Assembly (NCBI GenBank): GCA_947593585.1
Contig: CANQDP010000001.1
Coordinates: 53,381-117,380 of the forward strand
Source of the DNA: an uncultured Clostridia bacterium
Lineage (GTDB): Bacteria; Bacillota; Clostridia; Christensenellales; UBA1242
Length of the DNA stretch: 64,000 nucleotides
Direction: 5' to 3'
The notes beneath the pieces are model-generated. The model was not told the DNA's origin, ran no database searches, and saw only the letters and a list, made by a program, of their open reading frames with translations. Position 1 is the first letter of the stretch; the number at the start of each line of letters is the position of its first letter. Made by a program: the position numbers and the translations under genes. This document shows, piece after piece, positions 38,468 to 64,000 of this stretch.

Positions 38468-41400
38468 ATGGTTATGTCAGGGGTTAAAAAGAAAAGCATA
38501 ATTTTATCAATAATTTTAGTTTTGTTTTCATTGCTCGCGTTTGGGTGTCGTGTGAACACTCCTGTTGAGAGCATTGGTTTTAACACGGACGAAATTGGGC
38601 TTTCAAGCATAGCGATGTTAAAGGGCGAAAAGTTTGCGCCGAAAGTTGATTTCGTTCCGTCTTTTGCTTCAAACAAAAAATATGCCCTTGTTAGTTCAAA
38701 CCCATCGGTTGTCAATGTGTCTGGTCAAGAGATTGTGGCAGTCAACGAAGGGTTTGCATACATAACTGCCATTGCAGACGATAATGAAAATATTCAAACA
38801 GCCATTAAGGTGGATGTGGCAGCATCTTCCACGAAGTTGGATAGCCCAAGCGCAATGAGCTTTAATTCTGGCGTGATTTCATTCAGTTCGGTTGAAAATG
38901 CGGTTGGCTACACGCTTGTTATATCAAGTTCGGGAGTTAGCCATGAAATAGATTTGGGCAACACCACTCAGTATGCGCTATCTAATTTTGAAGCGTTGAC
39001 GCACAGCGCTTACGACAATCTGCTCTCCGTCAAGGTTAGAGCAAATGCTCCAAATTACACTCGCGCGTTTGAAACTTCCGACTTCAGCGCAGAAACTAAG
39101 ATTTACCAATCTAGCGAAGTGAAAAACATTGCTGTTAGGTCGGTGGACAATGTTTCAAAATTGTCTTTTGAGCACGCCCAAGCCAACAAGTTTAATGTTT
39201 ACATAAATGACGAACTATGGAAAGAGGGCACAAGTGAAAAATCTATCGAATTAATGAATTTGCCAAGCAAATATGCTGGACAAATTATTTCGTTGCAAGT
39301 GGAAGCTTGGCGAGATTTGGGCGAAAACTATTATCCTTCACAAAGAACTAAAATCAATGTGGAAGTGTTGGGCTGCCCAGAGCTCAATGTTGGCGCGTCA
39401 AAAATTGAATGGTCTGCAATTAGAAACGCTGCGGGATATAATGTTTTGATTGACGGTGCTCCAAGCGATGAAATCTCAATGCTTAATCGTTGCGAATTGG
39501 AAATTTCCACATTAAACACGCCTGCATTAAATAGTGGCGAAAATAATCACACGCTCACGATTGAGCCGGTTATCAATAGAAATAATTTGGCAAAAACTGA
39601 GGCTAGTGAATATTGCACCATAAACTTCAACTTTAAAAAATCCACAACCCCAACATTTGATAGAGATAAAGTTTATTTCCCAGCTGAGAACGAAATTTAT
39701 TTGATTAGCCTCACCCAGTTAGATGGTGATTATAGCGAAACCATAGCGAGCCGCGAGCCAGAATTTTCGTTTAGTGCACTCCCTAAAGGCAGATATAATT
39801 TTAGCGTTGTGGTGCAAGGCTCAAAAGAAGAGGAAGATGGTGATATCGTTTATTATTTCTCATCCAGCCCAACAGAAAAAATAATTGAAAAGAAAGAGTT
39901 TGAAGACTATAAGCTTAATCTCAGCGCAAGCGTGGGCGAAAAAATCAAAATCATGTTAGACGGCAGCCTGCTAGATGATGCCACTTATTCATCTGCAATC
40001 AGTGGGGCGAGCATAAGCGAAGGGGTGCTAACGGCGAACGAAACAAGTGTTTCAATCAATTTTAAAAACATCACTTTGCCAGCCGGAGCTCACTCAATAA
40101 ATGCTTTTCGCATGGAGGAAGATGTTGAGGGCGAATTAATTTTAGCCGAGTTCACTCAACTTGAAGAAATTCCGGAAATCAAATTAGAAAATGAAACTGC
40201 CACCGTTGAATTAACTGCCACAAATCAAAACGCAGATGCGATAATAAGGTTTGAAGTGTTTGCGTCAGAAGAGAGCAAATTTTCACACGATGGCGCAACT
40301 CTAAATTTCAACACCACAAACGCCTCTCAAAACGATTTCTTATCTGCGGGAGAATACACAATTAAAGTGTTAGTTCTAGGCAATGGCTCAACAACTTTTA
40401 GCGTTCGTGAAGCAGGTGAAGATAAAAAAATGGCGGACGCAGAGTTCACCGTGCTTGCCGCTCCAACATTGAGAGTTGATAGCACGGCCGTTGACGGCAC
40501 AAAGGCAACTGTTAATTTCAACGAAATTGCTCAGGCCGTGAATTATAAAGTTTTTGAAAAAGTGGACGATTATAGAGAGTTCACTTCCACGAATGATGCC
40601 CACTTTGATTTTAATCTTGACGAGGGCAAAATTTGTTTTGCCGTTAGAGCCATAGGAGCAGGGAATGTGATTAGCTCTAATTATAGCGAAGAAATTAAAA
40701 TTAAAAGGCTAAAAACTCCACAACTATCGTATAACAAATTGCAAGACAAATTTGAAATTACAGATGATAATGACAGCCAAACAGTTTTAAATTATGCAAT
40801 TAATGAATCTGTTTTTGAAGATAAAAACCTAGAAAATTTTAAGCCTAAGTTCACGCCTGGTGAAAATGCACTGAAAATTGTGGCACACGCAAAAACAGGC
40901 AAACAAGGAGATTATTTCTATCTTGATTCCAAAGAAAGTGAATTGATAGTGGAAAAAATTGAAAACACGGGCGTGAAAGTGGAAATCTGCCAAGACGAAA
41001 ACTTTTTAATAGCGCAAAACGGAAATTATCTCAATCATATTAAAGTTTCGCTTAATGATGAAGGTGAGTTTAAATTAATCTTAAAATTTAACATTCTTGG
41101 GCAAACGTTAACCTTCAACGCTGCTAACGACCAACTAGTGTGCACCAGCTTAGAAAAAAATTATTCTTTGCCTTTCGCATATGAAGAGAATTGCTTTTAT
41201 ATCTCTTTGTTAAATGCTGATTTATCTCCAATAATTAAAGAGATGGCAAATTCAAAAGAAGAATCGCTAACTTACACATTAGAAGTGCAACTTGCAAGCG
41301 TTGATGATTATGATAATTTAGTGGCAAGTGATGCAGTTGAAAAAGAATTGAAAACTTTGCCACAATCATCAATCAATAGAGATGGCGAAAAAATTTCATT

Positions 41401-44400
41401 CAAAAATGTTGATGCGAGCCGTTCACAGACGGGTTATGCAATTTTGTTGGATGGTCAATATTTATTGAAATTGGATGAAGAAAATGTTTTAGACAAATTG
41501 GGTCAGTTTGAATTTGATTTCAACTATCTTAGCACAAAAGCACAAGAATTTATGATGGAATTTGAAGATGAGGTTGAGCACTCCATTTCAATAATCACCT
41601 TAAGCACGGATGACCAAAGTGTGATTTGCCTATCTAAAAATTTCAAGTTTGCAAGGAGCAAACATTTAGAGATTTCTTCTTCTAAAAATCTTGAAAATCC
41701 AAAGGTGTCTAGTTCGGTAATAATCAGCTTCAAAAAGGTGGAAACGGACTACGCAAGCAAAGAATATATCGTTAATTTATTCAGTGGGGATATGTTATCT
41801 CACACCCTTAAATTCACAGATGCTAATGCAGATGAATCTGGCACAATCTCTTTTGAATTAGATAATGAAGACTTGGTTGGTCCAATCCGCATTAATGCAT
41901 ATCTTTCCACAAGTGGCACAATGGGTGATGAGGTCAACTTGTTTAATTCAGCTCTTTCAAACGAGTTGAATTTCATAAAAATTGCGCAAGCCACAAATCT
42001 TACGATAGACAATGGAATGCTAAACTTCCAATGCGTGGATAATGACAAGGTGGCTTTCTATGAAATCTATCGTGAAGCGGGAGAAAAGATTGGCACAACT
42101 CGCACCTGTCAGTTTGATTTGTTTAACCTAGAATATTTCGCCACCACCAATTTGCAAGTTAGAGCGGTGAGCGTGGAAGAATTGGATGGGGTTTATTACA
42201 CAAATGCGGACTTATCTTTGGCAATCACGGCAATCAAATTAAACGCGCCTCAGGTGGCGGTTGAAAACGGAGATTTTGTTTTAACAATTCAAGAATTAAA
42301 ATCTCTTCAAACACTTTTTGGCAACGGCAATGCTCATATTAAGGCTAACGAAAAAGAAATTTTTGAAAATCAGCCGGGCGTTGTGTTTGATTATAATCTT
42401 GGCAAAGTGTATGTGGAAGCATATGTGCTGTTAAGTTATGGCGAGAGTGTGGTGAGCGAGCAGTTGACTTTCCAAATCATTGTGAATGGGTTTGCTGATG
42501 AGGGCTTGTCCACTCACTATATAAATTCTGCCACATCGTCAATCAGCGTGTCTGGTTTGTTGCAACCAATCAAATTAAAGGTTGATTTGATTGAAACAGA
42601 GGATAGCGAAACGGTGGACACAATCGTGATTGAAAATAATTCACTCAATCCGCAAAACGGCATTAGTTATTCTTATATCATGCGCGTTACATATTTGCAC
42701 ACGGGCGAGGAGCAGTCCGCTCACACCTATTCAACCTTGCAAGGCAAATTCTATTATTATGAAACGGAAATAAATTCTCAGGCCACTTTTGCTGAAAACG
42801 CCGTTAAATTGCCAACCAAGTTCGTGCCAAATGGCGGAAGGGAAATTTTGTTTGCCGAGGGCAGTTATTTGGTGGAAATCAAAGTGGTGGCTGTTGGTGG
42901 CGAAACTATCTATTGCTCTTCAAATTATGCAAAAGTGAAGATAGACATTCTCTCACAAGTTAGCCCATCCGTGCTAGACGGCTCACTAGTTTGGAGAAAT
43001 GACCCGCTCGCGCAAGGCTACTCAATAAAAATTGCCAAAAATGGTGAAGATGAAAATGCAAAAATTTTGCACACAACAAGCAATTCCTTTGACTTCACCG
43101 CACAAGCGATAGACGACTTAACAGGTGTGCTTTCTGTGCAAGTTAAAGCGGTGAGCCATGTGAAAAATAGCGAGCAAGACGGGGTGCTTGAAAATAGAAT
43201 TAATAGCGTTTGGAGTGATAAATATTATGTTTATCGCCTAGACAAAGCATCTCTTGTTGAAGTGGACGATGGCTCAATCGTGTTAAGCGCCACAGAATAT
43301 TTCAGCACGGCAAGTTTTAATTTCACAAATGGTGCAACAAACCCACAAGTGAATTATGATGCGCATTTAGAGAAGGCAAACGAACTCATCGCTGCGCTAG
43401 AATCTTCTAGTTGGGATAGCCCACAGGGTGAAGATGTGGCAAAAGTTTCGTTGGCAAAAAGGCAGATTTTAGATGTTGATTATGACAAATTCAACATCCC
43501 TTCCGGCATTGAATATTCTCTATCGGTCGGGCTTAAGGGCAACACGGTGGATAGAGATGCCGACACTTTGCCTTTCGTGAATTCTCCAATTTTGGTAACC
43601 GATTTGAAAGTTACAAAAATCACATCGGCAGAATCCGTGGCAAAGAAGCAGGGCGAGTTATATTTCAACACAGACCAAAATGTTGCAGTTGAAGACTTTA
43701 ATCATAAATTTGACGAAGAAGAAAATCCAACCCTTTCAAAGGCAAAAATATTTAGAATCACAATCACAATGGGCAGCGAAAGTTATCCAATTTATGCTTT
43801 TGACTACGACACATTTATCTCGCTAAATCAAGAGGGCACTTATAATGAAAACATCTATTTAGAAGACCAACACTATGGCTCGCTTTATGCTCATTTTGAC
43901 ATTTCGCACAATGCGGAAACTTTAAGGCTTAATGTGTTTAAAAATAACACAATCGACTTTAATGTGGATTCAGTTTACTATAATAAAATCACAGTGCAAG
44001 ATGAGGAAGGCAACTTCGTTTATAAAATGGAGGGGGCCGAGCCTGTTAGCTTAGACCTCTCTCAAGGCGGAGTGTTTAATGTTTCAACTCTTGTGCTGGG
44101 CGGAGATAGCAAGCAAGTGAGCGAAAATCACACAGCCTACATCACCTCATCGTCAATGATAAGAAACTTTAAAAGATATGCTCAAAACGCCTTATCCACT
44201 TCGCGCGGCGAGTTGAGAATGGTAAGTTTGGCAGAAAGATTTGGCGAAGAAGATGTGATAGATTTCCCTGTTTATAAAGTGATTGCAGAGTCAAATCTTG
44301 AAGAGGCAAAAACATTCTTCTTATATTATAACGGCAAAGAAGATGCGCTTAAAGTTACAGACGACCCAGACGAGCAAAAGGGCATTTATGAAAAAATCAC

Positions 44401-47287: not shown

Positions 47288-47288
47288 G

Positions 47289-47894
47289 ATGGTTGAATTC
47301 TCAAAGATTTTTGGCTTCATAAAAAAACTTGCGCTCAATCTGGCAATCGCACTGTGCATTGTTCTATTTGTGGCACTATTGCTCATTTATGGCTTTGGCT
47401 TTAAGCTTTATAGCGTGCAATCGGCAAGCATGAGCCCCGCATTTGATAAGGGCGATTTGATTATTGTGAAAAAGGCAAAAAATTATAAGGTGGGAGATGT
47501 GTTGCAGTTTAATTATAGTGGCTTAAACATTTCTCACCGCCTGCTTAAAGTTTTGAATAGAAATGGCAAGATAATCTTTGTTTGTCACGGCGATGCGCTC
47601 GGGCATTTAGATGGCAGTTTGAGCGCACAAAATTGGCAGTATGATGCAGAACTTTTGCAAAACAAAAATTATTACGAAATTGCTCAATATGACGACGTGC
47701 AACTGGTGGAGGAGGGCGAAGTTTCTGGCAGGGTTAAAACAGTCTTTAAAGGGTATGGCACAGCATTCGACTTTGCTTCTTCTCACAAGTTTGCAATTAT
47801 TTCTTGGGTGGTTATATTTTGGCTTGGATTGGCAATAATTGATAATGAACTTGAAATGCACAAACGGGCAGGAAAGAATTTTAGCGTTGAATGA
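47289..47894 (+). CDS. sipW: Signal peptidase I, SipW-like (ER/archaeal type, S26B)
   Basis: N-terminal TM helix, then the catalytic Ser box VQSASMSPAFDKGDLIIVKK (SipW: SGSMEPTFKTGS), His box GLNISHRLLKV (SipW: VTHRV), HGDA (SipW: KGDNN), and a C-terminal TM helix FAIISWVVIFWLGLAII. The ATG at 47289 lies 1 nt after the giant gene's TAG (47285-47287). Confidence 0.8.
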   Translation: MVEFSKIFGFIKKLALNLAIALCIVLFVALLLIYGFGFKLYSVQSASMSPAFDKGDLIIVKKAKNYKVGDVLQFNYSGLNISHRLLKVLNRNGKIIFVCHGDALGHLDGSLSAQNWQYDAELLQNKNYYEIAQYDDVQLVEEGEVSGRVKTVFKGYGTAFDFASSHKFAIISWVVIFWLGLAIIDNELEMHKRAGKNFSVE

Positions 47895-47902
47895 ATAATT
47901 AA

Positions 47903-48763: not shown

Positions 48764-48853
48764 AAAATCTCCTCAACATAATCTATTTGCTGAGGTCTTA
48801 AAATATAACAAAATTCGTCAAAAAAATCTTTTATCTTCTAAAAAGTGCAAAAC

Positions 48854-49249: not shown

Positions 49250-49300
49250 TTAATTATTAATATTATTTGCTATTTTACGCAAGACTAATAGTGAGGGGTT

Positions 49301-52300: not shown

Positions 52301-55300
52301 CAATATCCAAACTCAAATAATAATGACTATAAGTCGTATAGATTGGGATATAGAATTTATGCGGTTACTATTGATGGCGAAACGGTGAACGAAGAGTTGG
52401 TGGACACAATCAGTGGGGTTGAAATCAACATTCAAGATAGCGAAGTGTCAATATCTGCCTATAAACCTGCCAGCACCGGTGGCGGAAGATATAAGGTGTA
52501 TATTTATGCGCTAGACAATCCTGACGCAAGCAATTCGGTAAATCTGATTATCAGCGATGGCTCTAGAAATAATCCTTACATCCTTTCATCTCCAGAAGAT
52601 TTTAGAAAAATTCAAAAGAATCTTAACGCACATTATGTGTTGGGAGCAGACATTTCGCAAGATAACCTGACTATTACGGGCGAGTTTAATGGCACACTTT
52701 CAGGCTTGATGCAGCAATTGGATAAAAACAATCAAACCTACTTCCTCACACATTCAATCACCACACGCTTAACTCAGTCAAGCGATAATGACAATCGTTA
52801 TCTAAGCATATTCCAGCGCCTTGGCGAGGATGCGGAAATTAGCGATTTAATCGTTAATGTTGGCATTGATTCAATCACAAATAATTCACAAGCCAATTTA
52901 TATGCGGGCGCACTTGCCGGCATAAACAACGGCAGAATTATTAATGTTGAAGTGGGCATAAACGAAATTGCCGAAGTTCAATTAGACATTGGCATTGGCA
53001 GCATATATTTCGGTGGCATCGTTGGGCAAAACAACGGCGAAATAAATATGGGCAATAGTTCGGTGAACATCTATTCACTAAAACTAGATTTAAAAGCCAG
53101 CTCGGGCAACAGAATTCTTGTTGGTGCACTCAGTGGCGAAAACGTTGGTGAAATAATTGGCAATTATCAGGGCAAATCAAGCCTAGATGACATTATCTAC
53201 ACAGTTGTGGCAAACCTCACAGTTAAAGCAAGTGGCGTTGAATTAAATGTGGGCGGAGTTGCCGGTAGCAACAACAGAAACATTAGAAACATGATTGTTG
53301 GTGGCAAAATCCAAGTGAACGCTTCAAATTCTTATTTGGGTGGCATTGCAGGTGAAGGGCAACCTGCTTCCACAATCTCCACCTCGGCAGTTTTGGCACT
53401 TGATTTGGAAAACACTCTCGGCGCAGCAGCCGGCATTGTTGGCAAAACAAATCAGGCAGTTATAAATGATGTGCGAGTGCTTTTGGCAGACGCAAATTTC
53501 TTTGAAGTGGGCGTTAAATCTCAAGGAAGAATTTTTGGCAAAACTCAATCTGCGGGCATTGTGGCTCAGTCCACTGGCTCAACAATTACTTTTGCATCAG
53601 TTGAAGATTTCATTGGCAACGAAAACGGCGAAGATTTCTTTGCAATTCAAGGTGAAGACACGGTTGCCGGCTTGGTTCATGGCTCGAACACTGAAATCAA
53701 GAGCTCGTTTGTGAATGCTAATTTGGGTGCAGCCACAAGTGTTTGCCTCACATCTAATGCGTTGAACGAATCGGGCACTTACTTCATCGGCAAAGTGCAA
53801 AACTTCACATTCGCAAATCAAAGCAATCTAACGCTAAATGCAAACACAACTTATGCGATATTATACACAGATGAAAATCTTTATTATAAAGCATATAATT
53901 CAACCAATTTAGTTGAAAAAACCATGTCTTTAACTTCGGGAATGGACATTGTTCAAACCAGCTCGGACGAAGCTCATAAGAAATATGAAATATATGGCGC
54001 GGAGTTCCGTCCAGAAGAAGGCGGCACATATGAGTTGAAATATGATTTGGCTCAAGTTTATAGGCTTGAGGGCGATAGATATGTGCCACTGAAAGAAACG
54101 GACATAATACACAGCTCCGACCAATTTGTTGTGCTCACAGATTGGGAAACCTTTGTGAAGGACACCCTTCTTGCCTCGGCCGGCAGTTGGGAGGGCAACA
54201 CGCTCGTGTTGAGCGGTGGCACAACCTTTAAATTGGATAGTGAAATCAATAGCATCGCATTCAAAGGCTTGTCTTTGTTCTTCCCATTTGTTTGCAGTGT
54301 GGATGGCGATAAGGTTGAACCTTTCATGGTGATTAGCCCACAATCAATTCAAACGAACTTCAATGAAGGCTATGTGCTTTTCATCAAATCAAATTTGTTG
54401 GAAGGCGAAATCGACATCGGCTCACTCATTGATGCCGGCGAAATAAAAATTAGCGAAATTTTGCTTGTGAACTATTTTGAATTTTCAAATGGTGCATCAA
54501 GCTCAGCTTATAACACACATTATCTAATTAACAAAACAAGAATGGTCAATGGCAGCGAACAAACACTCGGCCTGCTAGACCGCACCATTGAGCCGGAATC
54601 TGCTCAGGGTGGTGTGAAGTTTGAAATTGTGTATGGCACAAATTTTGCTTCACTTTCTGCCGATGGTGAGCAAATCACATTCAATGGAGTTAGCGGCACA
54701 AGTCCAATCTTGTTAAGGTGTTATTCAATCTTCAATCCAAGCAAACAATCGTTCGTCATTTTCTTCACTCAAAGTGGAATTAGCAATCTTAAAGTGAACT
54801 CCACATCTGTGGAAATTTTGGAGGACACAGGAAATGACCCTGAAGAGGATGTCGATTATCAATTCACCACGCATTCAAGTGTGGGAAGAATTAATTTAAC
54901 GCTTGAAGCAGAAAACTTGTTTGAGGGGCAACGCTTTAAAACAATTTTTGATAGCGTAAATCAATTTAGTCTTTATAAGCTTGAAACGGAGATGGTTGGC
55001 GGAGATGTGGATTATCTAACAGCCGTTCCAACATCCTCTCCAAAATCACTAGTTTTAGATATTAACGATAATTTTGAAGGCTCTTATGCTGAAAAAGTGA
55101 TAAAAATCAACCTATATCTAAATATGACGCAATATTTTGCAGGCACAGGTTTCTTCGCTGGGGAAGAAGATGTCTATCATCTGCTCGCAACGGTGAGCGT
55201 GCGTGTGGCAATATTTAAGTCCTCAGAGAGCATCACTCCTTCAAAAGAAGCCTTTGCAGATATCCCAACCAGCGACGCAATCAGTTTTGAAGTTAATTTG

Positions 55301-58300
55301 CAGACTGGTTATACGGGCGGAGCAACTCAGGGGGACCTTTCTGCCCACATCACAGAAAGTGGCGATGTGGAATTCAACGAAGTGGATAAAGATAGCATTT
55401 TCCTATCATTTAGCAAGGGAGAGGATAGCACAGAGTTGGAAAATTTGATGAGCCGCGCAAGCGTTTCAAACATTGCCGAACTCTTCAATTTCTCCGTTAG
55501 ATTTGAATATTATAACGAATCTGGCGCTAGGGGATATAACTACACAATTTCATTCTCCTTAAAAGATGAATATGATTATAGGTTTATCACCGGTCCGGTC
55601 AATCTGGTGTTGATAGTGGCTTCCACAACCAACCCGGCCATTGCAACTCAGCCTATTGAAATTTCGTTTGTTCCAACCAATTTCCATTCGGCAAGAATTT
55701 ATAACTATGCGGCAACAGAGTCGCAAGCATCGGGCACGGCTATTCTATCAAGCAGTTTGACCGACACATCATATATTTCGCCAAAAGGCTATGGCTCGAT
55801 TATGGTCATTCACCTTGACCCAATTTATTCTAATTATGAAACTATAAGTTTGGCAAGTGGTGCCGATCAAAATGTGCCAACGGCAGATGGCCCAGTTTAT
55901 ATGATGTTAACGCAGCTCGAAAGAGTTGGCGGAAACACCTTCCAAGTTGTGCCAAATGTCAATGGCGACACGAGCGGAAGAAACATCAACTTAAATCCTG
56001 AATATTTCACAAACGGCATAGCGTATGTTCATGCAATGGTTTCGGAAACATTTGGTGGTTTCGTTGTTCCTCTCGAAGCAACTCTTAGTGTTAAAGTGGC
56101 AGGAGTGGAAGCCCCAATCGAAATCACGAAATATTTAACCACAGAATTTTTGCCAGCGGTTGAGCTTGAATATGACAAAAACGCAATGCTGAAAAACGAT
56201 AAAGCGTATTTCATTCAAGAGGACACTTATCAAAATAGAGCGTCAATCACTCTTTATGGCTATGAATTTGGCAGCTCTTCTCCAAACATTAGTTTTGTTT
56301 GGAATATCGATGAAAACTCAAAGTTTAGTTATAAAAACAACAGCCTAGATGTGATTGTTGACGCTAGTGGCAGAGAATATAACATTGGCGACTATGTTGG
56401 CACAAGTAGTTTGACAGATGTAAGCATTAGGGCGAATAGCGATGGCTCATATTCATTCGATTTCTACATTCACGCATATTCAAACATTCCTGCAAGTTTC
56501 AAATTGGTGGCAAATTTATCGTTTATAGACGACACGGAAAATAACACCCGCGAACTGATTTTCCATCCGGTGAAACATTTGCTTACGGGTGCTTACTTAA
56601 AGGAGTCGGGCAACAATTTCTATGTGAATATGAACACAACTCGCAGGCTCGATTTGTCCTTCACCACAAACAATCCAAATTATGATTTATCAAATGAAAT
56701 CTATAATTTAATCATCAACGATTTGGGAGGAGAGAGCGGTGCTCAAGCGTTGCTAAGGCATTTCTACTTCGTTGGCAACAACATTGGCAGTGGCTATTTC
56801 AGTGATGAAAATCTAAAGGCGTTTGAAATTGAAATTTCTCAAAATAAGATTTACCTAACAGGCAATATCGAAAGCGAATCGGTTGTGAGATTTAATCTGT
56901 CTTACGACTATGTGCTAGACGAAGCAACCGGGCTCTATGGCTTGCACTTTGGTGCGGGCGATAGAGAGATTGCGTTCTCATTCTCACTCATCATTTATGC
57001 GGAAACCACTGAGGACGCTCCAACAGCAATTTACAACACCGAGCAATTTATTCAAATGACTAAGTCTGGCAGTGGCGACTATATCCTTATGAACGACGAA
57101 TCTAAGGGTGAATATATCGTGCTGGAAGACTATGAGCCGGGCGTGGCAGACATTGCCAGCCTAGACGGCAACAACAGAAAAATTATCATAAATTCATTTA
57201 AAATCACGCCGGGCAGGACGCACTATGGCTTATTTGAAACAATAGGCACATATCAAAATGTGCTTGGCGAAACTAAAAACACAATATTAAAAAATGTCAT
57301 CGTTGATTATAGTGGTTTAACAGATATCTATTTCACCAACAACAACATGTCGCAACTAGTGTTCGGCGGTTTGGTGGCGGAAGTGGAGTCTGGCGGCTTA
57401 ATCTATAACTGTGATGTCATGAATCTTTCCACGAGCGCTAAGACTGTGAACATTGTGGTTGACGAATTCTCGGGTGTGGACATCACCTTCGGCGGATTGG
57501 TTGGCATAAACAATGGCATAATCACAAATTCAAGAGTGGGCAGAGATAGATACACCAAGATAAGAATGGATTCTCGCACCTCGCCAGTTATCACCACCGA
57601 ATATGCTAGTTCATTAACCTTTGTGGTGGGCAATAGCATGTCTAGTTTGCCAACCGATCAAGCAAACGCCTTCAGGGGCACGGTTGGTGGATTTGTTGGG
57701 CAAAACACTTCATCTGGCGTGATTGCAAGTTCGTTTGTGGCAAACACAAGCATCAAAAACTATTCTTCAAGGTCGGATCAAACAAACATCACGGCTGGCT
57801 TTGTGGCAAGCAATGCCGGCAGGGTGGCATATAGCTATGTGAAAGGTGCAAGCGACAATAGTTCAAACACCGCTCGTGCATTGGGCTCAGAAGTGTCCTC
57901 TCCAACAAACGGCAATGTGGCAGGCTTTGTTTACACCAACACAGGCAACATTGAAAATTGCTTTGCAAACATCAAGGTGGTTACAAACTCTGCGTTGTCT
58001 GCCGGATTTGTTTATCAAAATATGTCGGGCGCAACAATCACCACAAGTTATTCAGCAAGCGACATGGATTTGGATAAGGACGATCCAGCAAATAATGCTG
58101 CAAAGCAACCATTTGTGGGCGTTGATGCAGCCGATAACTTGCTCTCTAGCGGCACAATCACAAACTGCTATTATCTAGACGAAACGGGCAACACCTATGA
58201 TGTGATTAGGCAAGATGGTCAAGGTCAGGCTGTGGCATATAATCTTGATAACTTTGCAAACGCAAATTCACTCTCAGGCTTTGTGTTCATTCAAAGCAAC

Positions 58301-61300
58301 CGCAGTGAAGAAAGAAATCAGGGCGTTTGGAGTTATTATTCAGTGGCAACGAATGCAAAACTCGTTTTGCCAGAGCTAACCACGGCAAATCAAATTTCTC
58401 ATTCTTATAGATATTTAGTAAGTTCGGACAACAACACGAATGTTTACGCAAATGCGCCAGACTTTATGCTTGGCAGCGTGAACAATCCAAATATCATTAG
58501 AGATGCAGAAGAATTTAATAGGGTTTTGACAGGTGTTACGGGCAAAGATGACGACATTGAAGCAAAACTTAAAAATATGAACGGCTATTTCAGGCTTATC
58601 AACAACATTGATTTCAGCACAGCCTCTATCTTAACGAGAACGGACTTCGTGCTTGGCGACAAATCTAATAATGTTGTAACCAGCATTGAAGGAAACGGCA
58701 TGAGCATATCTAACATTTCGTTAAATGTGCTGGATAAGCAAGGTGGTCAAAGTGCCACATCAATAGATAAGGTTGGTCTATTTGCAGAAATTGATTATGC
58801 GTTCATCAAAAATATCGATTTCAACTTTGGTGCTCTAAACATTTCGGATAACGATTTAAGCACAATTGAAATCACCTATTCAGGCGGTTTGGCAGGCACA
58901 ATCGACAACACTGCCTTAATCAATCTATCATTTAATGGCACAAACACATCCATTCCGGGCATGAACTTGGTAGGTGGTGTGGCAGGCTTAATCACGGGCA
59001 AGAGTTTGCTATATGGCATTGATTCAAATCTTGGAGCGATTAGCGGACACATTTCCGGCAATGCTATGTACTATAACGAATCCGAGTTCGCTGATATGCG
59101 TGGCACAATAGGTTTCTACGGCAATTATGAAGACTATGTGAAGACTATGTCATTTGCCGGCGGAATTGCTGGCGTGCTAGACCTTGAAAGGCTTTCAAAT
59201 GTTGTAAACAATGTTTCGTATATCACAGTTTATGGCAATCAAATGTCTGCTCGTCAGGGAGGAAACATTAAGGGCATATATTCTGGTGGTGTGGCAGGAT
59301 ACGCAAACATAAACACCAGAGCGTTCAAACTCAAATTCTTTGTGGGGGACAACACAAATCTGCTAGGCATAAAGGCGGTTGGTGGCATCTATGGTGTTGG
59401 TTTGGGCACAATTATTGCATCACAAGTTACCGCACCAGAATTTGAAAAACAATTTGACTATGATAAGAATTTTGCAGCCTACATTTTGGCATTGGAAGAA
59501 AATGACGGCGCAAGCCTTAATAGTGATGTAAACAACATTGGAAATTCAACCCTGCTATCTAGTGAAGGTTATGCCGGCGGTTTGATTGGCATAGGCATTT
59601 CACAAACGGTGGAAAGTTGCTATAGCAAATCAAGTGTTGATGTGGCTTCCACATTTGGCGGACTGATGGGGCTAAGCATTGGCAGCACAATCGTGCATTC
59701 TTATGCTGTGCCATATGTAAATTTGGATAATTCAATCATCACTAAGGTGGGCGGATTAATCGGCAAAGCATATAGCATTGCAGACGGTTTGAATGAATTT
59801 AGCGAATATCGCACATACGCAATAGATGTGCTTCGCTTAAATGCTCCAACAAACACAAATGTTGAGCACACTTTCTCCACAATATTGACGGACAACAACA
59901 CTTTAAAAGAGATTATTGCAGGCAATGTGCGCGATTACACAGATGACGGCACTCTTGGCAAATTAGTGTCAATCGAAGATAAACAAATAGACTATCTTTG
60001 CGCCGATTATCAAGACGGGAGCAATGTGCACATCCGCAGCAATCACGGCAAAATCACCTCAGATAACCTTGCAGTGTTTGTTGGCATAGTGAATAATTAT
60101 GCTAAAAATGATGTTGAAGATGTGATCAAATTCAGCGCAGGAACGGGTAAGGAGATTAAAAAATTATACAATTTGGATGATATTAACCAATCTGAATTGT
60201 TCTATAGTATGTTTGAAGAGTGGCCAGCTGAGTATTGGACACTTGATAACACAAAATATTATCCACACCTCATCAAAGAGGATGCAGAAAACTTCATTAG
60301 AATTGATGAGGCTTCGGATTTCGATTATTTAGTTGAGCACCCAGACCTCAATTATAAGATTGTGAAGGATATAGACATGGCAGGCTGGGAATCACAGCAC
60401 AACTGGGTGTTTAATGTCAACTTCACAGGCACGCTGGAAGGTGATATTGGCTTGGATGACGAAGGTAATTTGGAAAATCCTGCACTTCCACGCGTTTATA
60501 ACCTCCATGTTTCAAATGCAGATTATGCAAATCAAACGGCAGGCTTATTCAAGCAAACGCAAGGTGCAAGAATTAGAAATATCGATTTCGTGTGGAAGCC
60601 AACGCAATCTAGCAATGCAGAATCTGCCATCAACCTAACTCAAAACAGCTATATGCAAATAGGTGGCGTTTCTTGCGATGATTCACCAAGCGAAAATAGA
60701 ATTTCTTTATTCAGCAACTTAAATGTTTATGTTGGCGATTATGTTGAAGGCAGCGAATTTGTAACCTGCAACGATGCTTACTTCCTTGTGAAGAGCGATA
60801 AAAATGTTACAGGTTTTGGCGGCATTGTTGGTAAAGGCGAGAGCAGTTCAATAGAAAAATGCACATTCAACGGAAATGTGGATTTGGCGTTAGGCACGGA
60901 TAATGACGGTGCTATCTATTTCGGCGGTCTGGCAGGGCAGATAGAGAAAACTAGCACAAGCATAGCCGAGCAAAATAGGTTGACGGTTAGAAATTCTAGC
61001 GTGGGCAACCTAGAAAACTTCAAAACAAAATTCACCCTCAGTTTGCAAGGGTATGGCAGCGCATATGTCGGCGGTGCAATAGGCTACGCAAAAGATGGCT
61101 CAATCACAAATGTGTTTGTTGGCAATGTTGAAAAGAATGAGCAATTTAGAGAGGTTGAGTTGACAGTTTCCGCTATGGAAGATGCCACATATTTGGGCGG
61201 CTTTGCCGGTTATATAGATAACTGCACAATCTCTAGCGACAACGCAACCACAAAGCTATCAATCAGCGGCGGTTCAAGTGCGAATAGTTCCGATTTCTTG

Positions 61301-64000
61301 CGCGTTGCAGGTTTGCTTGGCAGATATGGCAGAACGGCAAACTCCACAGCAACCCCAATAGAATTGTGCTTTGTTAAGACCGCAATTGATTTAACAAGCT
61401 TGCAAGCAAACACAGTTTCCGCTGCGGGCGGTGTGGCAGAGCTATACACTAATGGCGAAGCACAAGTTAATCAGTGCGTGTTTAATGTGGCAATTCAGTG
61501 CGAAGCTGAGTCTGAAACGGGTGAAGAAGTGGACACTTGCACCATCGCATCAATTTGTGCGGGCGGCGTTGTGGCTCGTCAAGATGCTGCAAGTTCGGCA
61601 AGTGGCACAATAGTTTTAAATGAAGTTACAGTTTATGAAGATTTCATAATCGGTTCGGCTTCTTCCACAATGAGCATTTATGCAGGCGGATTTGTGGGCA
61701 AGTCGGAAGGTGAGGTGAATGCTCTTAATAGCATTGCAGGCGGAAGAATTGTGCCAATCACAAAGCAAGTTGCACCAAGTGAAACGGGCAATTATAATGT
61801 GTATGTTGGCGGGCTTGTTGGCTTATCTGCTTCCGTGTCGTTCAATAAAGCAATCAGTGCTTCAAGTTTGATTGCAGATAGCATTGCATCAAGTTCAATC
61901 AAGAGCTTGAACATTCACGCTGTGCTTGGCGGCATAGATGGTGAAGGCAGCATTGATTGCACTGAGGTTTACTATTCAAGCGACATTTCGCTCTTCCCAG
62001 AAGAACTTTGCACAGAAGCATATAACCTATCGGCAAATGTGTTGCTTCACACTAATTCTTGGCAAGAGAGTTTCATTGCGGATAGGGCATGGCAGTTGTT
62101 GGATAATAATTTGCCATACCTAATTCAAACGGATGACGAGTTGGTAAGCTATGGTGTGCTCGACCTAGACTTTGAAAATAAGATAGGCTGTTATCATGAC
62201 GGCAGTGCATTCAATCCAAGACGAATTAATCCTGGCGCGCTTAACAGTATAGGAGATGACTACACCTTCTATATTATTGAGGCAGACCCACTTCAAACTA
62301 ATTTGTTGCCGGCAGAGAAAGACTTAAATGGCGTGCTGATTGGCGGCGAGATGGAATACTCTTTAATGAAGTTAAATCCAAGTGTCGGCTTGGTGAATGA
62401 AGTGTTGAAGCACTCTGCAGTGTCCAACATCCACTTAGTGATGAAGGCAAATGACGCAAGCAGTTTCTTCGCCGCAGGTGGCGGCGCAATCGCTGGCACA
62501 AATAACGGTGCAGTGTTCAACTGCTCAGTGCAAGGCACAGGCATCACCACACAGGGCAGAGCAAACGGCTTAATTGTGGGCGCAAACCAAGGCTTTGTGG
62601 CTTACTGCTATTCGTCTGCAGAAATCATCAAACTATCTGGCAGTTTGGCAGGCATAGTGGGCACAAACCATTCAAAAATTATGTCTTGCTATTTCACAGG
62701 TTATATCGACAATCAAACGGCAGAAAATCAAGCCGCAGGCATAGTGTTGAATAATGGAGAGAATAGTTATATCTACAACTGCTATATGGCGGGGCTTATC
62801 ACAAACATCACAAACAATGCTTTCTCAGCTTCTTCAATGGTTGGAGAGGCTTCACAAGAGGGCACAATCAGCACCGGCTTTGGCGAAAACAACTATATTG
62901 ATATAAATGTTAACAAGCAAGAAGTTGAAGAAAAATTCAAACCAAGCGAAGGCTTGCCATCTGCAGAAATAACCGCTCTCAAAACGGTTGAAACTCAATT
63001 CTTGATGGCAGGCGCAGACGCTGAAAACAATCAACTTTTGGCAGGCAATTGGCTCACAACTGTCAAGTCATTTGTGAAGGATTACAATCAATATTATGTT
63101 GACCTTTATAGCTTAACTTATGGCTATAACTACTTATATCCGGTTTATAACTTCTATAAGAGAGATAGCGAAATGCAATTAAATCGCATCAACTATCAGC
63201 TCTACACCGGCACGGGCACAGACAAAGCATATATCGACCCTAACAGCAAACTATATGAGAGTGAGCATGAAGAAGCGGCAGCATTAATTTTCGATTATGA
63301 TAACGAATTGAAAGAGCCAAATTATCTTTACACTCACGCATTTAAAGTGCCTCACCTTGGCGTTTTGAAGGCCGTTCAAGGCATTGCAAACTCGGTAACG
63401 ATTGGTCCATCCGGCGAAGCAAATAATCTATTCACAAACTTCAACTATGTGCTGATATACGACCTAGATGGCACATATCGCGTAACAAATCACGAAGGCG
63501 AAATTGAGGAGCAGTATTATAGCTGGACGGGCGTCGGCTCATCTGCGCAAAATGAGGGCTCCACTCCAAATCGCTTCCATTACACAGACGCACAATTCAA
63601 CGGCTTGTTCGTTTCAAACAAATATTATGATTTCACACCTAAAAAGAGTGTGTCTAGCGAGCTTGATGACGACCCAACAGAAACAATGTGCAGGGTTGAA
63701 AATCTTAGCACACAAGGGTTGTTTGACAATATTAATGATGCATATTTTGGCAGCATCTTGTTTGGCAATATGTATGAGTTGAAAAATAGTGGTGCTCTGG
63801 GCGTTAAAGTTGATTCAAATTCAAGCAAGGTTGTGAAAATAGACAAAATTTATTTCGACAAAGAAGCGTCTTATTCGGGCGTGGCAGAAGCGGACGGATA
63901 TGTTTCCGCAATGCTTGGCTCGGTTGTGGGCAGCTCAAATGTGGAAATTTCCAATAGTGGATTTATTCAGCAGCAAAAAGACACGGCAATCAGCCTCACA
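49301..64000 (+). CDS. Giant surface lipoprotein, at least 4,900 aa, 3'-truncated by the window edge; at least five GLUG-like beta-helix modules (absent from the ORF track)
   Basis: I read the frame of ATG 49301 (SD GAGGGG at 49294-49299) by hand to base 64000 and found no stop (14,700 nt). N-terminus MKKKLFGVFTAILLFVACIGLYAC has a lipobox-like end. From about 52568 onward there are repeated module entry motifs and many GG(L/I/V)xG...N.G.I.N turns (YAGALAGINNGRIINV, FGGIVGQNNGEINMG, FGGLVGINNGIITNS, YSGGLAGTIDNTALINL, FGGIVGKGESSSIEKC). Confidence 0.85.
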   Translation, partial: MKKKLFGVFTAILLFVACIGLYACKGKYDDLQFRIFYAYTENAENWIDGTGGIDCFYGDEDGQLPIKDGSSKIYIKVVVENVKAKHVGDIFVSCRTESTGTSFNGAIVKQDEVFSVEMSGKASIVLNVREANSQKNTDVQINASYPLERMEANYDVMPALYADETLDLNQVKEQIINFYPLGQTNQLDVSFAVNSVGFFDAQNEYQRSSKTSLLLSSNAVSITNSVLRLSNYSIDLINVDNYVLEIIAKSSAVADPVTLYVYVLPSADRSVAPQVEYKNDLENAAINGPIVLYSQSGEAENNYSSATLQANANVQSPFVKGVRTKNGLVNYNIALYVDDERVDFSSSSQKVDDENGLIFENPNKEENIFTINSTSNGSIGNLLIDFRLEVNEFLFSNEHRPAKSEFFVQKGQLASGIIVGNRDLGNSRPYTNGGVYTDSIYATQGETKPIFLNLDINSPQSSSQNITAYSIDSSLRILNQNLEVVAGGSIENRSQISVNFANQTATNGSMILRVRNNPETFQGVVCEASYIDVTITITKVVAPDAFVVYRDRDFTQTINSTNRERWLYLGVGEENSFFVRAYYTGTAFDQTCVQITSSNFAFADGTTSAQLGGYLKGGVELDGDFAGKPYYDYEIKFAQINALGVSSINIVAGVNIGVEYVFTAESKMISSGEFTINELAESLDVTKVNEFVANGNKYFNYALVLDKSANFEVLGKGKDANQGFLASYVSGIHVSAVDVDLVSEHISLDAVAVDDRVLSQYNNLFKATGVASERTTMIKIAVDYYVFDGYCKLMSGENAAEIYVQFAVYTPIERFDNLNATSSLLTYVDENAFLDENLASSTVSFVAKTILGRSPSSSVWFYNPTSENLEEVKNATSVKLYTSQKTIDSTVELTYNHERIDTGAILSNDASITVRLTGGKTMDSIRIWFTALRFGQESNKSSRDVIINFRDSAKADRVEIYNGDDGDIVVEGDGINNVYVSYIDVEDDETLVNKKFYATAQYPNSNNNDYKSYRLGYRIYAVTIDGETVNEELVDTISGVEINIQDSEVSISAYKPASTGGGRYKVYIYALDNPDASNSVNLIISDGSRNNPYILSSPEDFRKIQKNLNAHYVLGADISQDNLTITGEFNGTLSGLMQQLDKNNQTYFLTHSITTRLTQSSDNDNRYLSIFQRLGEDAEISDLIVNVGIDSITNNSQANLYAGALAGINNGRIINVEVGINEIAEVQLDIGIGSIYFGGIVGQNNGEINMGNSSVNIYSLKLDLKASSGNRILVGALSGENVGEIIGNYQGKSSLDDIIYTVVANLTVKASGVELNVGGVAGSNNRNIRNMIVGGKIQVNASNSYLGGIAGEGQPASTISTSAVLALDLENTLGAAAGIVGKTNQAVINDVRVLLADANFFEVGVKSQGRIFGKTQSAGIVAQSTGSTITFASVEDFIGNENGEDFFAIQGEDTVAGLVHGSNTEIKSSFVNANLGAATSVCLTSNALNESGTYFIGKVQNFTFANQSNLTLNANTTYAILYTDENLYYKAYNSTNLVEKTMSLTSGMDIVQTSSDEAHKKYEIYGAEFRPEEGGTYELKYDLAQVYRLEGDRYVPLKETDIIHSSDQFVVLTDWETFVKDTLLASAGSWEGNTLVLSGGTTFKLDSEINSIAFKGLSLFFPFVCSVDGDKVEPFMVISPQSIQTNFNEGYVLFIKSNLLEGEIDIGSLIDAGEIKISEILLVNYFEFSNGASSSAYNTHYLINKTRMVNGSEQTLGLLDRTIEPESAQGGVKFEIVYGTNFASLSADGEQITFNGVSGTSPILLRCYSIFNPSKQSFVIFFTQSGISNLKVNSTSVEILEDTGNDPEEDVDYQFTTHSSVGRINLTLEAENLFEGQRFKTIFDSVNQFSLYKLETEMVGGDVDYLTAVPTSSPKSLVLDINDNFEGSYAEKVIKINLYLNMTQYFAGTGFFAGEEDVYHLLATVSVRVAIFKSSESITPSKEAFADIPTSDAISFEVNLQTGYTGGATQGDLSAHITESGDVEFNEVDKDSIFLSFSKGEDSTELENLMSRASVSNIAELFNFSVRFEYYNESGARGYNYTISFSLKDEYDYRFITGPVNLVLIVASTTNPAIATQPIEISFVPTNFHSARIYNYAATESQASGTAILSSSLTDTSYISPKGYGSIMVIHLDPIYSNYETISLASGADQNVPTADGPVYMMLTQLERVGGNTFQVVPNVNGDTSGRNINLNPEYFTNGIAYVHAMVSETFGGFVVPLEATLSVKVAGVEAPIEITKYLTTEFLPAVELEYDKNAMLKNDKAYFIQEDTYQNRASITLYGYEFGSSSPNISFVWNIDENSKFSYKNNSLDVIVDASGREYNIGDYVGTSSLTDVSIRANSDGSYSFDFYIHAYSNIPASFKLVANLSFIDDTENNTRELIFHPVKHLLTGAYLKESGNNFYVNMNTTRRLDLSFTTNNPNYDLSNEIYNLIINDLGGESGAQALLRHFYFVGNNIGSGYFSDENLKAFEIEISQNKIYLTGNIESESVVRFNLSYDYVLDEATGLYGLHFGAGDREIAFSFSLIIYAETTEDAPTAIYNTEQFIQMTKSGSGDYILMNDESKGEYIVLEDYEPGVADIASLDGNNRKIIINSFKITPGRTHYGLFETIGTYQNVLGETKNTILKNVIVDYSGLTDIYFTNNNMSQLVFGGLVAEVESGGLIYNCDVMNLSTSAKTVNIVVDEFSGVDITFGGLVGINNGIITNSRVGRDRYTKIRMDSRTSPVITTEYASSLTFVVGNSMSSLPTDQANAFRGTVGGFVGQNTSSGVIASSFVANTSIKNYSSRSDQTNITAGFVASNAGRVAYSYVKGASDNSSNTARALGSEVSSPTNGNVAGFVYTNTGNIENCFANIKVVTNSALSAGFVYQNMSGATITTSYSASDMDLDKDDPANNAAKQPFVGVDAADNLLSSGTITNCYYLDETGNTYDVIRQDGQGQAVAYNLDNFANANSLSGFVFIQSNRSEERNQGVWSYYSVATNAKLVLPELTTANQISHSYRYLVSSDNNTNVYANAPDFMLGSVNNPNIIRDAEEFNRVLTGVTGKDDDIEAKLKNMNGYFRLINNIDFSTASILTRTDFVLGDKSNNVVTSIEGNGMSISNISLNVLDKQGGQSATSIDKVGLFAEIDYAFIKNIDFNFGALNISDNDLSTIEITYSGGLAGTIDNTALINLSFNGTNTSIPGMNLVGGVAGLITGKSLLYGIDSNLGAISGHISGNAMYYNESEFADMRGTIGFYGNYEDYVKTMSFAGGIAGVLDLERLSNVVNNVSYITVYGNQMSARQGGNIKGIYSGGVAGYANINTRAFKLKFFVGDNTNLLGIKAVGGIYGVGLGTIIASQVTAPEFEKQFDYDKNFAAYILALEENDGASLNSDVNNIGNSTLLSSEGYAGGLIGIGISQTVESCYSKSSVDVASTFGGLMGLSIGSTIVHSYAVPYVNLDNSIITKVGGLIGKAYSIADGLNEFSEYRTYAIDVLRLNAPTNTNVEHTFSTILTDNNTLKEIIAGNVRDYTDDGTLGKLVSIEDKQIDYLCADYQDGSNVHIRSNHGKITSDNLAVFVGIVNNYAKNDVEDVIKFSAGTGKEIKKLYNLDDINQSELFYSMFEEWPAEYWTLDNTKYYPHLIKEDAENFIRIDEASDFDYLVEHPDLNYKIVKDIDMAGWESQHNWVFNVNFTGTLEGDIGLDDEGNLENPALPRVYNLHVSNADYANQTAGLFKQTQGARIRNIDFVWKPTQSSNAESAINLTQNSYMQIGGVSCDDSPSENRISLFSNLNVYVGDYVEGSEFVTCNDAYFLVKSDKNVTGFGGIVGKGESSSIEKCTFNGNVDLALGTDNDGAIYFGGLAGQIEKTSTSIAEQNRLTVRNSSVGNLENFKTKFTLSLQGYGSAYVGGAIGYAKDGSITNVFVGNVEKNEQFREVELTVSAMEDATYLGGFAGYIDNCTISSDNATTKLSISGGSSANSSDFLRVAGLLGRYGRTANSTATPIELCFVKTAIDLTSLQANTVSAAGGVAELYTNGEAQVNQCVFNVAIQCEAESETGEEVDTCTIASICAGGVVARQDAASSASGTIVLNEVTVYEDFIIGSASSTMSIYAGGFVGKSEGEVNALNSIAGGRIVPITKQVAPSETGNYNVYVGGLVGLSASVSFNKAISASSLIADSIASSSIKSLNIHAVLGGIDGEGSIDCTEVYYSSDISLFPEELCTEAYNLSANVLLHTNSWQESFIADRAWQLLDNNLPYLIQTDDELVSYGVLDLDFENKIGCYHDGSAFNPRRINPGALNSIGDDYTFYIIEADPLQTNLLPAEKDLNGVLIGGEMEYSLMKLNPSVGLVNEVLKHSAVSNIHLVMKANDASSFFAAGGGAIAGTNNGAVFNCSVQGTGITTQGRANGLIVGANQGFVAYCYSSAEIIKLSGSLAGIVGTNHSKIMSCYFTGYIDNQTAENQAAGIVLNNGENSYIYNCYMAGLITNITNNAFSASSMVGEASQEGTISTGFGENNYIDINVNKQEVEEKFKPSEGLPSAEITALKTVETQFLMAGADAENNQLLAGNWLTTVKSFVKDYNQYYVDLYSLTYGYNYLYPVYNFYKRDSEMQLNRINYQLYTGTGTDKAYIDPNSKLYESEHEEAAALIFDYDNELKEPNYLYTHAFKVPHLGVLKAVQGIANSVTIGPSGEANNLFTNFNYVLIYDLDGTYRVTNHEGEIEEQYYSWTGVGSSAQNEGSTPNRFHYTDAQFNGLFVSNKYYDFTPKKSVSSELDDDPTETMCRVENLSTQGLFDNINDAYFGSILFGNMYELKNSGALGVKVDSNSSKVVKIDKIYFDKEASYSGVAEADGYVSAMLGSVVGSSNVEISNSGFIQQQKDTAISLT

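Follow-up and report, generated by a model that had tools for sequence, protein, structure and literature searches.

Two conserved giant predicted lipoproteins flank a probable sipW-operon remnant in uncultured gut Clostridia

What keeps two giant genes close together on the chromosome of an uncultured Clostridia bacterium, a dedicated surface system or inherited gene order? The question is raised by contig CANQDP010000001.1 (assembly GCA_947593585.1), of which we analyzed 64,000 nucleotides (nt; positions 53,381 to 117,380; hereafter the window). Two intact open reading frames (ORFs) on the same strand encode predicted lipoproteins here, P1 of 2,939 amino acids (aa) and P2 of at least 4,899 aa, which together take up 23.5 kb or 37% of the window and bracket genes for a SipW-type signal peptidase, a 164-aa protein and, on the opposite strand, SpoIIID (Table 1). 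An earlier note on this DNA had described the same genes and proposed an integrated surface-fiber or adhesin system of a spore-former. We consider it reasonably probable that the locus instead comprises two conserved, chromosomally fixed giant envelope lipoproteins with a role in adhesion or scaffolding, which flank the remnant of a sipW-led operon and count spoIIID among their syntenic neighbors.

Both N-termini, MVMSGVKKKSIILSIILVLFSLLAFGC in P1 and MKKKLFGVFTAILLFVACIGLYAC in P2, satisfy a PROSITE-type lipobox rule: a basic n-region leads into a hydrophobic core, and the cysteine falls among the first 35 residues. P2 starts at ATG 49301, 7 nt after GAGGGG, and has a second candidate lipobox, FVA-C18, besides GLYA-C24. 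Hydrophobic 19-mers in P1 and in the visible part of P2 are confined to the N-terminus, LPXTG is absent from both, and Pfam scans of the same sequences gave no SLH or CW_binding match; these features predict that neither protein is sortase-, SLH- or choline-anchored. The earlier note had also reported the lack of a C-terminal transmembrane (TM) helix, which holds for P1, where no C-terminal hydrophobic segment was found; for P2 the window allows no such judgment, since it cuts the gene short.

The two giants share one module type, single in P1 and repeated in P2, as had been noticed from the letters alone. BLASTP of P1 against P2 returned a single high-scoring pair (P1 2721-2853, P2 3802-3937; 34% identity, E 1.4e-7). 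Whole-protein Pfam scans were near-empty, hence both proteins were scanned in pieces; the GLUG motif then exceeded its cut-off of 20.5 bits in both (P1 23.1 bits, P2 32.5 bits), and a Peptidase_M26_N match in the P1 module, at 25.4 bits, lay slightly under the cut-off of 27.7. Coils of the form [ILV]GG[ILV], ~36 aa apart, number five in P1, in one C-terminal cluster, and 19 in P2, in six to seven clusters, several of which are opened by a canonical module start (..NPY.I.....F..I......Y.L..DI....F.G.L.G); shuffled sequences gave none. An AlphaFold2 (AF2) model of P1 aa 2540-2939 is all-beta, with a predicted local distance difference test score (pLDDT) of 73.6 and a predicted TM-score (pTM) of 0.77. 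Foldseek matched the P1 module to the N-terminal beta-helix domains of IgA1 proteases from S. pneumoniae and G. haemolysans (6xja, E 2e-5; 7uvk, E 4e-5), to 3n6z (BACOVA_03286; E 1.5e-3) and then to generic right-handed beta-helices, with polysaccharide lyases, polygalacturonases and tailspikes among the structural neighbors. Similarly, a module profile that includes outside homologues matched the PDB sequences of 3n6z at E 5e-29 and of 6xja at E 4e-14. The N-terminal domain of IgA1 protease has been described as a beta-helix (PMC9637739), and the module start in P1 and P2, G.G...PY.I....L..I....YxL..DIDL...F.G.FDG.G..I, is the form of that family (6xja, 7uvk, 3n6z). The common module is the already known GLUG / Peptidase_M26_N beta-helix domain type, which in Pfam corresponds to the PF07581 / PF05342 region.

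The giants differ in what surrounds this module. An iterated profile recovered seven Fn3-like modules in P1, three in a truncated ORF at the start of the window (P0) and none in P2, and shuffled controls gave no match at the level of E 1e-18 to 1e-27. At least eight modules had been counted in P1 from the signature W..(I/V)..A.(G/N)Y.(V/I); the profile lowers that figure to seven, and the strict signature occurs three times only. Searched against PDB sequences, the profile of all ten modules reached a tissue-factor Fn3 domain at E 0.007 and Fn3 proteins at E 0.1-0.4, with 7jgt and 3mpc at E 0.1-0.3, and the Pfam fn3 match in P1 has E 0.14. Because the matches to PDB Fn3 domains are weak, the Fn3 assignment of P1-type modules is plausible but unproven. 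The Big_2-like Ig domain reported for P1 is there as a match, but one below cut-off, as are matches to PKD and Y_Y_Y. P1 consists of a lipobox signal, this weak Big_2-like domain, at least seven Fn3-like modules, other beta-rich sequence and one C-terminal GLUG beta-helix.

Most of P2, including a sequence-dark stretch, had no match when Pfam was run on it in pieces. An AF2 model of aa 1690-2600, built with the family alignment, is a string of beta-sandwiches with pLDDT 70-94 over model residues 30-750, and Foldseek matched this Ig-like model to cadherin and protocadherin ectodomains, the S-layer proteins SbsB and Sap and other multi-Ig chains at E 1e-13 to 1e-8. Because the dark stretch models in this way, P2 can be read as a chain of Ig-like spacers and GLUG beta-helices, with a lipobox signal and predicted Ig-like stretches that alternate with six to seven GLUG modules. 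Modules 2-4 form the best-conserved region of the P2 family (42-48% identity). Searched as they stand, P1 and P2 gave no match among PDB sequences. BLASTP self-comparison found no internal repeats, near-identical repeats are absent at both the protein and the DNA level, and windowed phmmer self-comparison recovered only the Fn3-like and GLUG modules.

Apparently disrupted copies of both genes were seen. In a contig of the same species from another sample (L006; 99.96% identical, 3.5x coverage), P2 codon 1879 reads TAA in place of TTT at window positions 54936-54937, and the gene is called as proteins of 1,878 aa and at least 2,171 aa. Contig L003 has a 1-nt indel in the GLUG module of P1, and in the distant locus L015 the P1-like gene falls into two parts, of 2,016 and 917 aa. 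Either the assemblies are in error at low coverage or the genes are inactivated in some populations.

P2 belongs to a family of tightly conserved length. An exhaustive HMMER search with P2 aa 1440-2639 found 41 cluster representatives, ~24 of which are 5,600-7,185 aa long and collinear. Twenty full-length relatives of 6,591-7,185 aa (mean 6,948, standard deviation (sd) 166) align at 32-42% identity over all 4,899 aa, and the last residues of P2 in the window align to aa 4,878 of the 7,091-aa orthologue P0012; because P2 is collinear with these relatives, the window is taken to hold ~70% of it, with ~2,200 aa outside. Word-indexed protein searches returned two hits for P2 aa 1-1200, seven for P2 aa 3700-4899 and two for the P1 GLUG module, and failed to return even P2's own C-terminal part. 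Since the exhaustive search found the full family, the near-orphan status of P1 and P2 is a search artefact. Annotation across the P2 family is limited to a 28-residue motif.

The relatives also indicate how P2 may end. All twenty retain the lipobox cysteine (...[ST/A]AC followed by G/K.KY..(L/M)(E/Q)F), and all have, 610-840 aa before the C-terminus, a hydrophobic segment, a Lys/Arg-rich stretch and a second hydrophobic segment, which by the positive-inside rule would form a TM hairpin with a cytoplasmic loop. After the hairpin comes a Tyr/Asn-rich domain of ~650 aa, conserved among orthologues at 29-34% identity and ending in ..TYL.ES..VTLGGG (P0012-P0034), which had no match in Pfam or among PDB sequences; additional GLUG coils lie between positions 4,900 and 5,900. 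By orthology P2 is probably tethered at both ends, and the anchoring by the N-terminal lipid only that had been proposed for it cannot be upheld given the hairpin in 20/20 full-length relatives.

P1 is likewise conserved. Its orthologue in L011 (2,644 aa, lipobox LFAFGC) is 35-37% identical over the full length and that in L015 (lipobox LLIFGC) 29% identical; the lipobox is kept in all three P1 orthologues with a legible N-terminus. P1-like gene calls in L008, L009 and L012 are 2,952-3,084 aa long, and the visible C-terminal GLUG modules of L008 and L009 align with that of P1. The gene order of the window is repeated in same-species contigs and in a rabbit-gut metagenome-assembled genome (MAG), 'uncultured Clostridia bacterium Lapin-021__bin12' (91.5% nt identity); scans with the peptidase as query led to this one near relative among genome contigs and to two loci among metagenome contigs. 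In five distant contigs, whose P2 orthologues are 32-37% identical to P2, the order runs P1-like gene, S26 peptidase, genes for proteins of ~780-840 aa, ~225 aa and ~215-229 aa, a 256-397-aa membrane protein, sufC, sufD, spoIIID (minus strand), a tilS-like gene (minus strand), P2-like gene and a ~340-aa protein (minus strand). Partial contigs L005 and L015 fit this order, the latter with P1-like gene, S26 peptidase, ~790-aa protein and a small protein, and L011, the closest distant relative (41% identity), has P1-like gene, a 253-aa gene, spoIIID and P2-like gene without the peptidase. The succession of giant gene, sipW and giant gene, the loss of which in relatives would have counted against the earlier proposal, is kept at this distance. 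Since relatives have sufC, sufD and the tilS-like gene in this interval as well, the giants seem to be linked through inherited core-genome synteny and not as a dedicated system.

Further large genes are found a few kb 3' of the P2-like gene in some relatives: a Peptidase_M26_N-containing protein of at least 1,058 aa in L008 (39664-40967), a 1,063-aa ORF in L012 (32276-35467) and an ORF of at least 1,578 aa in L013 (31239-35972). The clade may hold more GLUG-type proteins.

In the reading that we favor, Sec would export P1 and P2, which would be lipidated on the conserved cysteine, then cleaved by signal peptidase II, and would stay attached to the membrane on its outer side. By orthology, P2 would continue for ~2,200 aa with more GLUG coils, the TM hairpin with its Lys/Arg-rich cytoplasmic loop and the conserved ~650-aa C-terminal domain. 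Tethered at its two ends, it would form a loop or fibril of ~6,000 aa, with rigid beta-helix segments joined by Ig-like spacers, that extends through the wall and past it. The role of the giants would be adhesion or envelope scaffolding, and their domain types suggest that they are probably fibrils or adhesins. The sipW-led operon of small secreted proteins, which lies directly 3' of the P1 orthologue in most relatives, would have lost its four other genes here.

The intervening genes are those that had been named from the letters: TIGR02228 identifies the SipW-type peptidase and PF12116 the opposite-strand spoIIID, with the 164-aa gene beside it. The peptidase ORF opens at GTG 47220, and the likeliest start is ATG 47292, 5 nt past the P1 stop. 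The protein has a TM segment at either terminus and, aligned with five orthologues at 32-41% identity, shows the conserved boxes SASMSP, SHRLL and CHGD (Ser/His type, not Ser/Lys). Because it scores far under the cut-off of the Bacillus SipW equivalog NF046067 (42 vs 190 bits), we assign it to the SipW type but not as the Bacillus orthologue. Three of the five distant orthologues (L008, L012 and L013) have Ser-Glu for Ser-Met in the catalytic-serine box (PSEQP, PSEYP and GSEEP) and retain the serine, the HR box and the CHGD box. The 164-aa protein is faintly similar (E 0.045) to the 253-aa gene at the same position in L011.

The genes that follow sipW in relatives bear on what the peptidase does. 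Three of their products have signal ends of the forms ..G.TYA/F, ..(V/I)T(Y/H)SYF(T/S)A and ..TN(S/A)WF(T/S), which resemble the SipW-dependent class and make these proteins likely SipW substrates; one matches TIGR04088 at E 0.03 (14.5 bits vs a cut-off of 19). A profile of nine small proteins from relatives had no TasA or camelysin (Peptidase_M73) match among PDB sequences and no Pfam match, and the terms fiber operon and fiber subunit therefore reflect gene order, size and signal type. The 64-kb window contains neither a homologue of the four post-sipW genes nor an ORF with a SipW-dependent-type signal, and the sipW of the window is most likely the remnant of a neighboring sipW-led operon whose four other genes were lost in this lineage.

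It is against this background that an integrated system has to be weighed, in which P1, the SipW-type peptidase and P2 would cooperate and the peptidase would process the giants or help assemble them into a surface fiber, or in which, as a variant, P1 would be a giant TapA-like base for the fibers of the sipW operon. In the window and in seven loci (L007, L008, L009, L012, L013, L014 and L015) the P1-like gene always directly precedes sipW, 5-16 nt away, no terminator-like site lies past the P1 stop (the sole one in 47200-49320, at 47201-47218, is inside the P1 coding end), and linkage with the P2-like gene is retained down to 32% identity. We nevertheless regard such a system as rather unlikely. 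Both families keep the lipobox cysteine; this implies cleavage by signal peptidase II and makes it unlikely, on sequence grounds, that the SipW-type peptidase acts on P1 or P2. In relatives the candidate substrates are encoded by the four genes downstream of sipW, the housekeeping genes sufCD and the tilS-like gene stand between the sipW block and P2, and the lineage of the window kept both giants and lost the putative fiber genes. In five relatives sipW is adjoined by its own probable clients, and L011 keeps both giants without sipW. The conserved giants of the earlier proposal stand, and the peptidase and spoIIID look like neighbors of the giants and not working parts of a surface system.

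The constant presence of spoIIID raises a different possibility, that the giants are made in the mother cell or forespore and act on the spore surface or engulfing membrane, perhaps under SpoIIID control. In 9/9 contexts spoIIID is the divergent neighbor of the P2-like gene, directly or via the tilS-like gene, and 33 nt separate the end of P0, which carries P1-type modules, from a complete gerA/gerB/gerC germinant-receptor operon (1255-5120) of the host, which from this operon and spoIIID is a spore-former. The neighborhood also holds sufCD, the tilS-like gene and rplJL, so that synteny explains the adjacency, and spoIIID, though constant, is probably an incidental neighbor. Moreover, the lipobox and TM hairpin point to anchoring in the cytoplasmic membrane, Pfam scans of P1 and visible P2 gave no coat or exosporium domain (e.g., collagen-like, BclA-type), and the best promoter-like site before P2, by consensus match only, is of the sigma-A type. 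A spore role is in our judgment quite unlikely.

The sites in question come from the spacers before P1 and P2, which the earlier note had called AT-rich and which are the most AT-rich of the window; the phased A-tracts that it described hold up less evenly. Phasing of A/T-tracts at 10.5-11 bp is strong before P2 (0/300 shuffles reach it) and marginal before P1 (p ~0.02-0.06), and because three other spacers (10147-10757, 34129-34304 and 15257-15626) show a 10-11 bp periodicity too, phased tracts are a general trait of the spacers of this genome, not of the giant genes alone. All promoter-like sites given here are consensus matches only. The P1 spacer has a perfect TTGACA-17-TATAAT on the minus strand, facing cysS, and on the plus strand only a 9/12 site of the extended -10 type (38396-38423). 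In the P2 spacer a sigma70-like TTGACT-17-TATAAT (11/12) lies at 49221-49249, 52 nt before the P2 start, and minus-strand TTGACA sites face spoIIID; another sigma70-like site (47903-47931) is upstream of the 164-aa gene. The sequence TTGTCAAG, present in both spacers and considered as a SpoIIID box, was rejected, being the reverse of the sigma-A -35 TTGACA hexamers that face cysS and spoIIID.

That the giants are enzymes or deliver toxins, with beta-helices that cleave proteins or glycans or with a C-terminal toxin as in polymorphic toxins, is very improbable, for although the module resembles Peptidase_M26_N, has polysaccharide lyases, polygalacturonases and tailspikes among its structural neighbors and ~2,200 aa of P2 lie outside the window, P1, visible P2 and the C-terminal 2,200 aa of P0012 contain neither HEXXH nor any further family of peptidases or glycosidases, the C-terminal domain is conserved among orthologues with a common end motif and is not polymorphic, and the gene next to P2 in relatives encodes the conserved ~340-aa protein on the opposite strand and nothing immunity-like and small.

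Several points weigh against the reading of two envelope lipoproteins beside an operon remnant. The function of the giants is read from their domain types, and the C-terminal 30% of P2, including the TM hairpin, lies beyond the window and is predicted by orthology. The P1-sipW junction is tight, 5 nt here and 9-16 nt in relatives, which suggests co-transcription, so that P1 and the sipW operon may be functionally connected. TasA or camelysin similarity is lacking in the small proteins of relatives, and what marks them as a fiber operon is gene order and signal ends. Finally, it is unusual for adhesins to keep so strictly to one length with no variation in repeats, which may indicate a structural role instead. 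In a bolder account, which we hold to be rather doubtful, the P2 family would be a length-constrained and so far undescribed scaffold of the envelope, ~7,000 aa long, held by the N-terminal lipid at one end and by a TM hairpin ~700 aa short of the C-terminus at the other. Its gene would be single-copy, part of the core genome and fixed in chromosomal place throughout a clade of uncultured gut Clostridia, and the protein would determine the dimensions of the envelope or of appendages instead of being an exchangeable adhesin; P1 would be the giant membrane-tethered base of a SipW-dependent fiber, in the place of TapA.

Table 1. Features of the giant-gene locus and of the window start, in window coordinates.
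Feature	Coordinates	Strand	Basis
P0, C-terminal 406 aa of a third protein cut by the window start; Fn3-like modules aa 97-195, 209-289, 297-397	1..1221	+	profile
AT-rich spacer, 323 bp, 17% GC, between cysS (-) and P1	38145..38467	.	sequence
P1, predicted lipoprotein, 2,939 aa, lipobox LLAFG-C27	38468..47287	+	intact ORF
Weak Big_2-like Ig domain, P1 aa 49-107	38612..38788	+	Pfam Big_2 E 0.013, 15.9 bits, under cut-off 22.8
Three consecutive Fn3-like modules, P1 aa 119-201, 209-281, 293-378	38822..39601	+	iterated profile E 1e-18 to 1e-27
Fn3-like module, P1 aa 665-740	40460..40687	+	iterated profile
Fn3-like module, P1 aa 1487-1572	42926..43183	+	iterated profile
Two tandem Fn3-like modules, P1 aa 2261-2338, 2342-2425	45248..45742	+	iterated profile
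GLUG-motif right-handed beta-helix module, P1 aa 2550-2939, five coils of ~36 aa	46115..47284	+	Pfam, AF2, Foldseek
ER/archaeal (SipW)-type signal peptidase I (ER, endoplasmic reticulum), 200 aa from ATG	47292..47894	+	TIGR02228 56.7 bits vs cut-off 51.85; Peptidase_S26 30.9 bits
164-aa protein	47950..48444	+	no signal peptide, no family match
spoIIID, 98 aa	48467..48763	-	PF12116 87.5 bits (cut-off 27); TIGR02844 74.7 bits, under equivalog cut-off 111.5
Spacer before P2, 537 bp, 16% GC	48764..49300	.	sequence
P2, first 4,899 aa (~70%) of a predicted lipoprotein of ~7,000 aa, lipobox GLYA-C24	49301..64000	+	ORF open to window end
P2 GLUG beta-helix module 1, aa ~1090-1440, start NNPYILSSPEDFRKIQKNLNAHYVLGADIS	52568..53620	+	coil motif, module-start comparison
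P2 sequence-dark stretch modeled as Ig-like beta-sandwich string, aa ~1720-2440	54458..56620	+	AF2, Foldseek
P2 GLUG beta-helix modules 2-4, aa ~2600-3530	57098..59890	+	coil motif, Pfam, family alignment
P2 GLUG beta-helix modules 5-7, aa ~3650-4620, including the P1-similar region	60248..63160	+	BLASTP E 1.4e-7; Pfam Glug 32.5 bits

The wider setting of the locus is that of the core genome. The giant locus is flanked by cysS, pheST, RmuC and ABC transporters, GC content is uniform across the window, and no mobile-element genes were found in it; an origin from a mobile element or prophage was rejected on account of the housekeeping flanks and the uniform GC. Rfam and tRNA scans of the window gave no match. 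P0 had been thought akin to P1 and proves to be so: besides the three P1-type modules, phmmer aligned P1 124-218 with P0 110-208 at E 2.3e-4, and a profile not containing P0 module 224-281 detected that module at E 7.7e-8. Pfam had no match in P0. Another likely surface protein, of 345 aa with BspA-type leucine-rich repeats (LRR_5), is encoded at 14219-15256 on the minus strand, and a glycosyltransferase family 2 domain fused to TPR repeats is encoded at 34305-35402, also on the minus strand, 3 kb 5' of P1, flanked by small ORFs without a family in a region of 29-34% GC (33000-37000).

The giants can be compared with several known systems. M26 IgA1 proteases share the GLUG beta-helix; unlike them, P1 and P2 lack an M26 catalytic domain, HEXXH, G5 domains and LPXTG, and the module serves as a building block of a non-enzymatic chain, once in P1 and at least six to seven times in P2. 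HEXXH and HXXEH were found in none of P1, visible P2 and P0, and Peptidase_M26_C had no match in P1, visible P2 or the C-terminal third of the orthologue P0012. Because the catalytic domain was looked for and is absent, the giants are not IgA1 proteases, and with a conserved C-terminus they are not polymorphic toxins either.

Like the giant surface proteins of Gram-positive bacteria, P1 and P2 are very long, signal-bearing, predicted membrane-anchored chains of beta-rich modules from gut Firmicutes. Ebh of Staphylococcus aureus, a protein of ~10,000 aa, has a C-terminal membrane anchor. Proteins of 10,000-30,000 aa are on record from gut Clostridia (bioRxiv 10.1101/2023.11.21.568195), and the size of P1 and P2 is therefore not exceptional by itself. 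In contrast to such proteins, P1 and P2 have a lipobox and not a YSIRK or ordinary signal, and their modules are highly diverged, without near-identical tandem repeats; the P2 family, moreover, is tightly fixed in length and order, with a TM hairpin followed by the extra ~650-aa domain. S-layer and cadherin-like multi-Ig chains (SbsB 4aq1, Sap 6hhu, protocadherins) resemble the dark part of P2 in that it models as a beads-on-a-string array of Ig-like domains; unlike them, P2 has neither SLH domains nor sequence similarity, TM-scores are low owing to a different domain arrangement, and a lattice is not implied.

The closest parallel for the peptidase is found in the fiber operons tapA-sipW-tasA of Bacillus and sipW-tasA-calY of B. 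cereus (PMC9674648, PMC4292775, PMC10151520). Similarly to tapA-sipW-tasA, the relatives have an ER-type signal peptidase I gene within an operon and small secreted proteins with ..TYSYFTA and ..TNSWFTS ends (sub-threshold in TIGR04088). The differences are that candidate substrates are absent from the window, that the small proteins of relatives lack TasA or camelysin similarity and that the gene 5' of sipW encodes a 2,900-aa lipoprotein and not a 250-aa TapA.

In the literature searched, the P2 family, its anchoring by lipobox, late TM hairpin and extra domain, and the strict syntenic pair of giants appear undescribed. No new biochemical principle is claimed, and the function given to the giants is one that we infer. 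For a giant Gram-positive surface protein, anchoring by a lipobox together with a TM hairpin and an extra domain is unusual, and the family is likely absent from MAG annotations or fragmented in them. The locus also offers a worked example of in-place operon decay, in which the sipW-led genes were lost and an orphan ER-type signal peptidase was left. Taken together, identity within the P2 family drops to ~32% while length (sd 166 aa), the order of domains and the place on the chromosome are retained, and because proteins of ~7,000 aa are costly, a family of such length is a sign that its envelope function is important to this gut Clostridia lineage, which only metagenomes have revealed.

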